Below, piece by piece: positions 12,457-13,514 of a stretch of 64,000 nucleotides of DNA (position 1 is the first letter of the stretch; every line of letters begins with the position of its first letter). The stretch comes from a virus, in the IMG/VR virus record IMGVR_UViG_3300025646_005470, one strand, 5' to 3'. Below the pieces are notes generated by a model. The model was not told the DNA's origin. It searched no databases and saw nothing but the letters and a program-made list of their open reading frames with translations. The position numbers and the translations under genes were made by a program.

Positions 12457-13299
12457 ATGAGCGAAAGCAAACTAGCAAAATACTACAGAGCACCAAAACT
12501 GTATGTTCGTATACCAAGTCAGGGTGCATTTAATCCTGATATAGAGCAGTCTATGAGTGAAGAACTTGCTGTTATGGCAATGACTGGGCGTGACGAAACT
12601 ATGATCAAAAACCCAGATGCGTTGTTAAACGGAGAAGCAATTACATCAGTTATCAAAAGTTGTGTTCCAGGAATCAAAGATCCAAAGGATATTCCAATCA
12701 CAGATGTTGATACTCTTTTAATTGCTATTAAAATTGCAACCAACGGTGAAGAACACGAAGTAAGTGCTAAATGTCCAAAATGTAAAACAGAAACTAGAGG
12801 TGTAGTAAATTTAAGAAACGTACTACCTACTGTAAAATTATTGGAATCAGAATACCCAATCAAATTAGATACCGGTGTAACCGTTTATATTAAACCTTAT
12901 ACCTATGCTATGCAAACCGAAGCGGCGTTGGCGGCATTTGACGAAACAAAAACATTGCAAAACTTAACTAAAGAAAAAGAAATAAATTCTGAAAGTATGG
13001 CAATATATAATAAAAGTTTTAGAAGAATGGCAGAAATGAGTGTTTCATTACTAGCAAGAAGTATTGTAAAAGTTGTTACTCCGGAAGGCGATGAAGTTTC
13101 TGATCCAAATGAAATTTTTGCATTTATTCAAAACATTGACTCTACTGCGGCAAAAACAATCGATGACACTTTAGCAAAAATCAATTCAATTGATATAGAC
13201 AAAAGAATTGAAATGACTTGTGAAAATGAAAACTGTAAAAATGTTTGGAGCACTGAAGTAGAATATAATGCGGCAGATTTTTTCGGAATTGGCTCTTAA
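12457..13299 (+). CDS. gp26: Baseplate hub/tail assembly chaperone, gp26-like
   Basis: MT..DE.....PDALLNGEA....IKSC, D.D.LLIAI.IA.NG, CPKC and C-terminal CENENC, ends ..DFFG. Confidence 0.8.
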   Translation: MSESKLAKYYRAPKLYVRIPSQGAFNPDIEQSMSEELAVMAMTGRDETMIKNPDALLNGEAITSVIKSCVPGIKDPKDIPITDVDTLLIAIKIATNGEEHEVSAKCPKCKTETRGVVNLRNVLPTVKLLESEYPIKLDTGVTVYIKPYTYAMQTEAALAAFDETKTLQNLTKEKEINSESMAIYNKSFRRMAEMSVSLLARSIVKVVTPEGDEVSDPNEIFAFIQNIDSTAAKTIDDTLAKINSIDIDKRIEMTCENENCKNVWSTEVEYNAADFFGIGS

Positions 13300-13514
13300 A
13301 GGCTGAGCCACAAGAAATAAATGTCTACTTTGAACAATTAGAAAAAGAAAGAAACTCAATCAAACAACAGATAACCGAAATCTGTTGGTACATGCGTGGT
13401 TCCATATCTTGGGAAGAAGCATGGAGTTTGAGTGATGTTGACCGTAATGACTTAACTAAATTTATTGGTGAAAACGCCGAACGATTTAAAAAGGCCGGTC
13501 AAATAGTTGTTTAG
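13281..13514 (+). CDS. -1-frame extension of the gp26-like gene (gp51-like C-terminal domain; ...ICWYMRGSISWEEAWSLSDVDRNDLTKFIGEN...), not in the ORF track
   Basis: Frame is open from 13269 to TAG 13512-13514 with no upstream start; slippery T TTT TTC at 13278-13284. Confidence 0.65.
   Translation, partial: FRNWLLKAEPQEINVYFEQLEKERNSIKQQITEICWYMRGSISWEEAWSLSDVDRNDLTKFIGENAERFKKAGQIVV

Follow-up and report, generated by a model that had tools for sequence, protein, structure and literature searches.

The gp26/gp51-family gene in the stretch of viral DNA analysed here (64,000 nucleotides of the IMG/VR record IMGVR_UViG_3300025646_005470, from an uncultured giant phage related to T4, referred to below as the window) very probably uses a programmed −1 ribosomal frameshift to make two proteins. 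We arrive at this reading of the sequence because a slippery heptamer is invariant and in phase among the frameshift-type relatives, because the peptide encoded behind it is conserved from the slip onwards and mostly lacks a usable start, and because natural fusions exist in which the two parts are joined in frame. Ribosomes would meet U_UUU_UUC with tRNA-Phe in both the P and the A site; most of them would continue and terminate four codons on, releasing a 280-aa short form that consists of the PF12322 domain alone and resembles gp26 of phage T4, and a fraction would slip back by one base, re-pair on UUU UUU and translate 76 further codons into a 352-aa long form resembling T4 gp51. The long form would presumably be the minor product. 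The features concerned are, in positions of the window:

10040 to 12358, minus strand: divergent 772-aa neighbour, probable tape measure protein
12457 to 13299, plus strand: gp26/gp51-family gene (PF12322, T4_baseplate) in the 0 frame, encoding the 280-aa short form
13266 to 13268, plus strand: TAA that closes the −1 frame just 5′ of the slip site
13278 to 13284, plus strand: slippery heptamer T_TTT_TTC in X_XXY_YYZ phase, on the Phe-Phe that forms the last two conserved residues of the domain
13284 to 13514, plus strand: −1-frame extension of 76 codons and TAG, the predicted helical C-terminal domain of the 352-aa form
13290 to 13310, plus strand: putative hairpin of 6 bp, 5 nt 3′ of the heptamer, possibly a weak stimulator
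13297 to 13299, plus strand: 0-frame stop TAA, four codons 3′ of the heptamer

The slippery heptamer and the reading frame behind it

The 280-aa ORF matches PF12322 with an E-value of 4e-19 and 69.6 bits (cut-off 24.5), residues 41-276 aligning to positions 20-218 of the 219 of the profile, and the match ends at residue 276, exactly on the Phe-Phe that the heptamer encodes. It also matches phrog_150, annotated as baseplate hub (E 2.9e-23), and its closest isolates, at 30-41% identity, are found among the jumbo myophages Phosso, Atu_ph07, PA5oct and the RaK2-like Asteriusvirus and Eneladusvirus. The 3′ end of the ORF reads GAT TTT TTC GGA ATT GGC TCT TAA; after a slip the −1 frame is open for 76 codons up to a TAG at 13512-13514, and the fused product would comprise 276 + 76 = 352 residues, with ..AADFF before and RNWLLK.. 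after the junction. All coordinates of an earlier note on this DNA, which had proposed the frameshift, were confirmed when we re-read the window: the heptamer that it called canonical does lie in the X_XXY_YYZ phase, the −1 frame is closed at 13266-13268 and has no ATG, GTG or TTG before an ATG at 13392, the fusion is of the size given there (with the split as above), and the TAG of the extension overlaps, by 2 nt, the stop of the PDDEXK_15/RusA-like nuclease gene (13511-14008, minus strand) that converges on it.

The slip site is conserved far beyond the window. With the −1 peptide as query, tblastn located the extension directly 3′ of a gp26-like gene, and in its −1 frame, in Atu_ph07, Phosso, Salicola SCTP-2 and Stenotrophomonas RAS14/CM1. 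We read the junctions in nine isolates (Atu_ph07, Phosso, SCTP-2, RAS14, PA5oct, Ecwhy_1, Munch, XaC1 and BF), all of which carry T_TTT_TTC at the ..FF end of the domain except RAS14, which has T_TTT_TTT; the −1 peptide follows the pattern FF(R/Q/H)xxLL..PEEI.. in 9/9, and the 0-frame tails after FF, 1-11 codons long, show no conservation. The heptamer was in phase in 80/80 relatives of the window from IMG/VR, where the −1 ORF stays open to the limit of the contig or, where complete, runs for 70-102 codons. A second jumbo set contained 73 frameshift-type loci out of 80, all with the −1 relation and T_TTT_TTC, and the unique frameshift-type loci of the two jumbo sets have it in phase throughout (142/142). 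Cyanophage-type loci, among them P-SSM2 and Syn9, keep the heptamer in 81 of 82 cases, and it is found in all three of P-SSM2, Syn9 and KVP40. Alignment of homologs, which the earlier note had proposed as a check on the slippery site and the −1 ORF, finds both conserved: taken over jumbo isolates, the cyanophages P-SSM2 and Syn9, Vibrio phage KVP40 and IMG/VR contigs, a slippery heptamer stands in phase at the equivalent ..FF position in 245/245 frameshift-type relatives (the window, 89 relatives of its group, 73 of the second jumbo group, 81 of cyanophage type and KVP40). The base 5′ of TTT is T in every case, although the residue that its codon specifies varies (D, H, S, N or T); judged from elsewhere in these genes, T-TTT ahead of a Phe codon would by neutral expectation occur about 0.45 times per locus.

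Five loci (L029, L069, L078, L088 and L090) read AAATTTTTCC and have their slip site displaced by one codon. The T-to-C change in them leaves the −1-frame residue as it is and alters the residue read in the 0 frame; only the overlapping heptamer A_AAT_TTT is kept, and the fused peptide VNFFHSFL is unaltered.

Behind the heptamer the −1 frame has the marks of coding sequence. Alignments of the extension are free of gaps from the first codon past the slip, at 25-49% identity, and within the clade of the window its variable sites fall 24/16/53 on the three codon positions, with 539 synonymous against 392 non-synonymous differences in the −1 frame as compared to 97/845 and 95/820 in the other two. 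Searching 1.84 billion representatives with a profile built from the extension gave 622 protein matches, mostly orphan ORFs of 45-100 aa; among the best 150 of these 622 were 13 fusions in which a single ORF of 320-351 aa joins PF12322 to the C-terminal extension. Their junction reads xFRxKLI, with one Phe and non-slippery codons.

The heptamer is followed by a possible stem, in which TGGCTC (13290-13295) pairs with GAGCCA (13305-13310). The hairpin claimed in the earlier note is thus present, with the 6 bp and the spacing described there, but neither its significance nor its conservation outside the close clade held up. It folds at −9.2 kcal/mol (z = −1.18), a value equalled by 25 of 200 shuffled sequences, and is kept at 5-6 bp in close relatives only, where the peptide is also identical; the other lineages compared have different hairpins or none, and no covariation was found. 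Folding downstream of the slip site has a mean z of −0.77 as opposed to −0.20 in controls. We rejected the hairpin as a conserved stimulator, given the missing covariation and stems that are specific to single lineages or absent.

A long form of the same sequence could also originate during transcription, if RNA polymerase added one U within the T6 run and a minor mRNA encoded the 352-aa fusion. A homopolymer run is indeed present there, and the resulting protein could not be told apart from that of a ribosomal slip. Bacterial RNA polymerase, however, usually needs runs of about 8-9 for slippage, for which T6 is short, and the five AAATTTTTCC loci have T5 only, still placed within an in-phase A_AAT_TTT. 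The run is moreover always phased as X_XXY_YYZ, with T in the preceding wobble position, as is needed for tandem slippage on the ribosome but not for slippage of the polymerase, and we regard a transcriptional origin as unlikely. Since the five displaced loci keep both A_AAT_TTT and the same fused peptide, they disfavour polymerase slippage and an assembly artefact alike. That the gene is a pseudogene or an artefact, a single ORF split by a recent mutation or by a miscounted homopolymer, is extremely unlikely. The break does lie at a T run, of the kind that some sequencing platforms miscount, but it recurs in 245 isolates and contigs that are independent of each other and come from many studies and platforms, and forms that are truly in frame have the one-Phe, non-slippery junction and not T7.

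The extension might instead be a gene in its own right, encoding a separate small gp51-like protein that is started on its own, at an internal or non-canonical codon or coupled to the stop of gp26. Separate CDS of 40-77 aa are annotated accordingly in P-SSM2, KVP40, Atu_ph07, Phosso, SCTP-2 and others, and gene callers yield orphan ORFs of 45-100 aa by the hundreds. But conservation sets in with the codon right behind the heptamer, ahead of the 0-frame stop, and across the 142 unique frameshift-type loci the first ATG, GTG or TTG is placed 18 codons (median) inside the conserved domain. No start codon is present in the first 10 codons of the extension in 103 of these loci, a further 2 have none anywhere, and where one is found so early (37/142) it is preceded by a Shine-Dalgarno-like motif in 0/37. 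Initiation at the ATG 13392 of the window would sacrifice 36 conserved residues. Covalent fusions occur in relatives. Two separate genes would also leave the invariant heptamer unexplained, and we regard them as very unlikely, more so than slippage of the polymerase. The earlier note had named homologs without a slippery site, and with a downstream ORF led by its own Shine-Dalgarno sequence, as what would speak against recoding; what the frameshift-type homologs have is the heptamer throughout and, where a start comes early, no such motif before it. A programmed −1 ribosomal frameshift is the reading followed below.

Gene copies in relatives and the T4 proteins gp26 and gp51

Leiman et al. (2010, Table 2; PMC3004832) class gp26 and gp51 of T4 among the chaperones of hub assembly. 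What is known of this role, and of gp51 as required yet not present in virions, comes from T4 genetics only, and the roles of both have stayed vague after decades (PMC3004832). The earlier note had described gp51 as a gp26-like protein with a C-terminal tail, and the Pfam layout bears this out: gp26 (208 aa) is the PF12322 domain alone (residues 1-206), and gp51 (249 aa) combines the domain (1-201) with a tail of 48 aa. Both members of the T4 pair thus belong to the same family as the window protein, the domain-only gp26 being comparable to the short form and gp51 to the long one. They differ from it in that T4 uses two divergently transcribed paralogous genes without a slippery site, whereas the window has one gene for both forms. 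In gene 26 of T4 the Phe pair is encoded by TTC TTT, and the protein ends in FFELL followed by the stop, at the position of the slip site.

The numbers of gene copies across relatives support the claim, also made in the earlier note, that this clade encodes by recoding what T4 encodes with two genes. A single PF12322 gene was present in 11 frameshift-type genomes with a Pfam match and a completeness of 90% or more, namely four of the five jumbo isolates, four IMG/VR jumbo records, P-SSM2, Syn9 and KVP40; the fifth jumbo isolate, SCTP-2, gave no Pfam match in the PF12322 search. T4, which served as control, has two PF12322 genes. Where the long form is encoded in frame, a domain-only paralog lies adjacent in tandem in 6/6 distinct jumbo loci, and these paralogs stop near the position of the slip site. 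Over all distinct genomes with an in-frame long form, the short paralog accompanies it in six out of seven. The seventh is a cyanophage-type IMG/VR contig (L250, 236 kb, rated complete) with the in-frame long form ..SFWLGMAH.. and one PF12322 gene, which is either a true exception to this pairing of an in-frame long form with a second gene or the result of an assembly indel. In a sister group of IMG/VR jumbo contigs (L104-L109 and L152), two tandem paralogs, one of the domain only and one with domain and extension in frame and the junction xFRxKLI, have taken the place of the frameshift. In a maximum-likelihood tree of the family, a quick version to be read cautiously, the two-gene arrangement emerges from within the frameshift forms on at least two occasions, and T4 gp26 groups with gp51 on a long branch.

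Regarding the similarity between the extension and the gp51 tail that the earlier note had put forward, the direct similarity of the window extension to the tail is weak and depends on cyanophage intermediates. At 76 aa the window extension is longer than the 48-aa tail. When the window protein and its extension were compared to T4 gp26 and gp51 by pairwise BLASTP, the matches were noise only and were set aside. The window extension alone, compared to a gp51 profile, scored an hhalign E-value of 0.048, with 2 of 30 column shuffles scoring better; the full-length fused profile aligned with the gp51 family collinearly through the junction (49%, E 1.7e-4). A larger HMM of the extension hit 26 gp51 proteins above 5 bits, always at residues ∼222-252, i.e., at their C-termini, and none of 564 shuffled or reversed decoys. 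The P-SSM2 extension matches residues 207-246 of T4 gp51 by BLASTP with an E-value of 5e-6, and a profile of the cyanophage and KVP40 extensions aligns with the gp51 family (hhalign 94%, E 1.2e-7) as well as, collinearly, with the window extension (48%, E 1.9e-4). Judged from these alignments the cyanophage/KVP40 extension is homologous to the gp51 tail, and the window extension is more weakly connected to it, through the cyanophage intermediates. The profile of the in-frame long forms aligned with gp51 over the N-terminal part only, and their precomputed Pfam assignments list PF12322 and lack the gp51-tail family PF28602.

The GenBank records of P-SSM2 and KVP40 contain the same pair, a gp26 gene and a small gp51 ORF, annotated as separate genes and with no ribosomal-slippage feature; the KVP40 record likens the small ORF to the C-terminal 40 residues of T4 gp51 and notes its analogous place. 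Because the heptamer is present and a start codon is missing in most relatives, loci of the P-SSM2/KVP40 type appear to hold one gene with two products.

Predicted structure, neighbourhood and a possible chaperone role

The 280-aa short form was modelled by AlphaFold with a pLDDT of 91.3 and a pTM of 0.85, and a natural in-frame homolog (P0116) was modelled as one unit (pLDDT 94.8, pTM 0.91), with helices at 262-337 and a helical extension. Four cysteines (C106, C109, C255 and C260), arranged as two CxxC-like pairs that lie far apart, are invariant in an alignment of 10 phages. In BFVD, the related long-form model had fold matches to gp26/gp51-like baseplate hub proteins. Foldseek returned no match for the short-form and long-form models in the PDB at E-values up to 0.001, and the short-form profile had none among PDB sequences; a wide VIA-align structure search was discarded, as generic helical hairpins dominated its matches. 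The tail assembly chaperone of HK97 (2ob9) aligned with the window model at Z 6.2 and an rmsd of 5.2 over 103 of 107 residues, and it ranked first against an independent model (Z 4.7, 100/107 aligned), both values lying in a range in which chance arrangements occur. This holds also for YqbN (3klu; Z 6.4 against the window model, 84/119 aligned), a PBSX-type protein counted among the tail assembly chaperones in Pfam. The recurrence of the HK97 chaperone with near-full coverage of its fold is suggestive but not decisive. The Pfam families of tail assembly chaperones did not match the window protein at E-values up to 0.1.

A conserved −1 frameshift in tail assembly chaperone genes, exemplified by gpG and gpGT of lambda, was reportedly described by Xu, Hendrix and Duda in 2004. 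The window gene resembles lambda G/GT in that a −1 slip at a heptamer near the 3′ end would give rise to a short and a C-terminally extended tail-assembly protein, and in that the frameshift signal is conserved despite diverged sequences. It differs in its heptamer, which is U_UUU_UUC and not G_GGA_AAG, and in its domain, whose size is over double that of gpG and which carries the two Cys pairs. It differs also in gene order, the probable tape measure gene of the window being divergent and upstream instead of downstream, and the convergent nuclease gene following in its place. KVP40 (L281) and P-SSM2 (L280), on the other hand, encode on one strand a tube-like gene (phrog_45), gp26, the −1 gp51 ORF and a large unassigned ORF (656 or 529 aa), which equals the order V-G-T-H of lambda. 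The tau and gamma proteins of E. coli dnaX are likewise two forms with a common N-terminal part that result from a −1 slip, which in dnaX fixes the ratio between them; there the slip yields the shorter form, while in the window gene it would yield the longer one.

The 772-aa neighbour matched no Pfam or PHROG family and nothing in tblastn. The named ESM Atlas clusters nearest to it consist of tape measure proteins (16 of 30 matches with TMP_3, 13 with PhageMin_Tail, score 0.94), and we regard it, as a lead only, as probably the tape measure protein. It combines a coiled coil with Gly/Ala-rich hydrophobic stretches and is located just upstream of the portal gene. Portal, protease and major head protein form a minus-strand head module in the surroundings of the gp26/gp51-family gene. 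The same divergent large gene, named virion structural protein, adjoins the gp26/gp51-family gene in PA5oct, Ecwhy_1, Munch, XaC1, BF, Phosso and SCTP-2. Further along the window, a 397-aa ORF (14834-16027, minus strand) may encode a radical SAM enzyme, with a CxxxCxxC motif near its N-terminus (..SYCNANCLVCP..), and lies next to a 382-aa ORF (16036-17184, minus strand). A gp5-like baseplate hub/tail lysozyme (24840-26297, plus strand; phrog_13211, E 7.5e-51) is preceded by a 979-aa virion structural protein (21896-24835).

From the weak, replicated fold match to the HK97 chaperone and the probable tape measure gene next door we infer a G/GT-like chaperone function for both forms. Together they could act as non-structural chaperones in the assembly of the complex of baseplate hub and tape measure: the common domain would hold one partner, possibly the tape measure protein, and the extension would recruit another, in parallel to gpG and gpGT. 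The recoding itself is well supported, and the chaperone mechanism is our interpretation of it. A wider scenario, to which we would give even chances when all of its parts are taken jointly, is that gp26 and gp51 are the gpG and gpGT of the T4 lineage, with PF12322 as an elaborated chaperone fold that coats the tape measure and the extension recruiting tube or hub. The frameshift would then be ancestral in the T4 supergroup (KVP40-like Straboviridae, cyanophages, and jumbo phages like Rak2, PA5oct and Atu_ph07), and T4 as well as at least two jumbo lineages would have swapped recoding for duplication.

Recoding, duplication and the case of T4

The earlier note was not aware of such a frameshift being described for T4-like phages, and this agrees with what we found: full-text literature searches gave no report of a frameshift in gp26/gp51 genes, and the records of the nine jumbo isolates, P-SSM2 and KVP40 have no joined CDS or slippage annotated. 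For the databases, the finding would mean a corrected annotation in hundreds of genomes that now list an orphan ORF of 40-100 aa. The family would also provide a natural series in which to study how a fixed product ratio is maintained, since it includes frameshift loci, loci with the long form in frame next to a paralog, and loci whose heptamer has moved by one codon.

The G-T frameshift has been reviewed as conserved in long-tailed phages "except T4" (Atkins et al., 2016; PMC5009743). The tail-chaperone frameshift counts among the most conserved recoding events of viruses, with T4 as the exception that is cited (PMC5009743), and the short/long pair that T4 makes from genes 26 and 51 may explain why. 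If this is true, T4 would be only an apparent exception to a universal tail-chaperone frameshift, one in which duplication has replaced recoding. A conserved frameshift in the gp26 gene with a gp51-like long product would furthermore suggest a testable role for both proteins.
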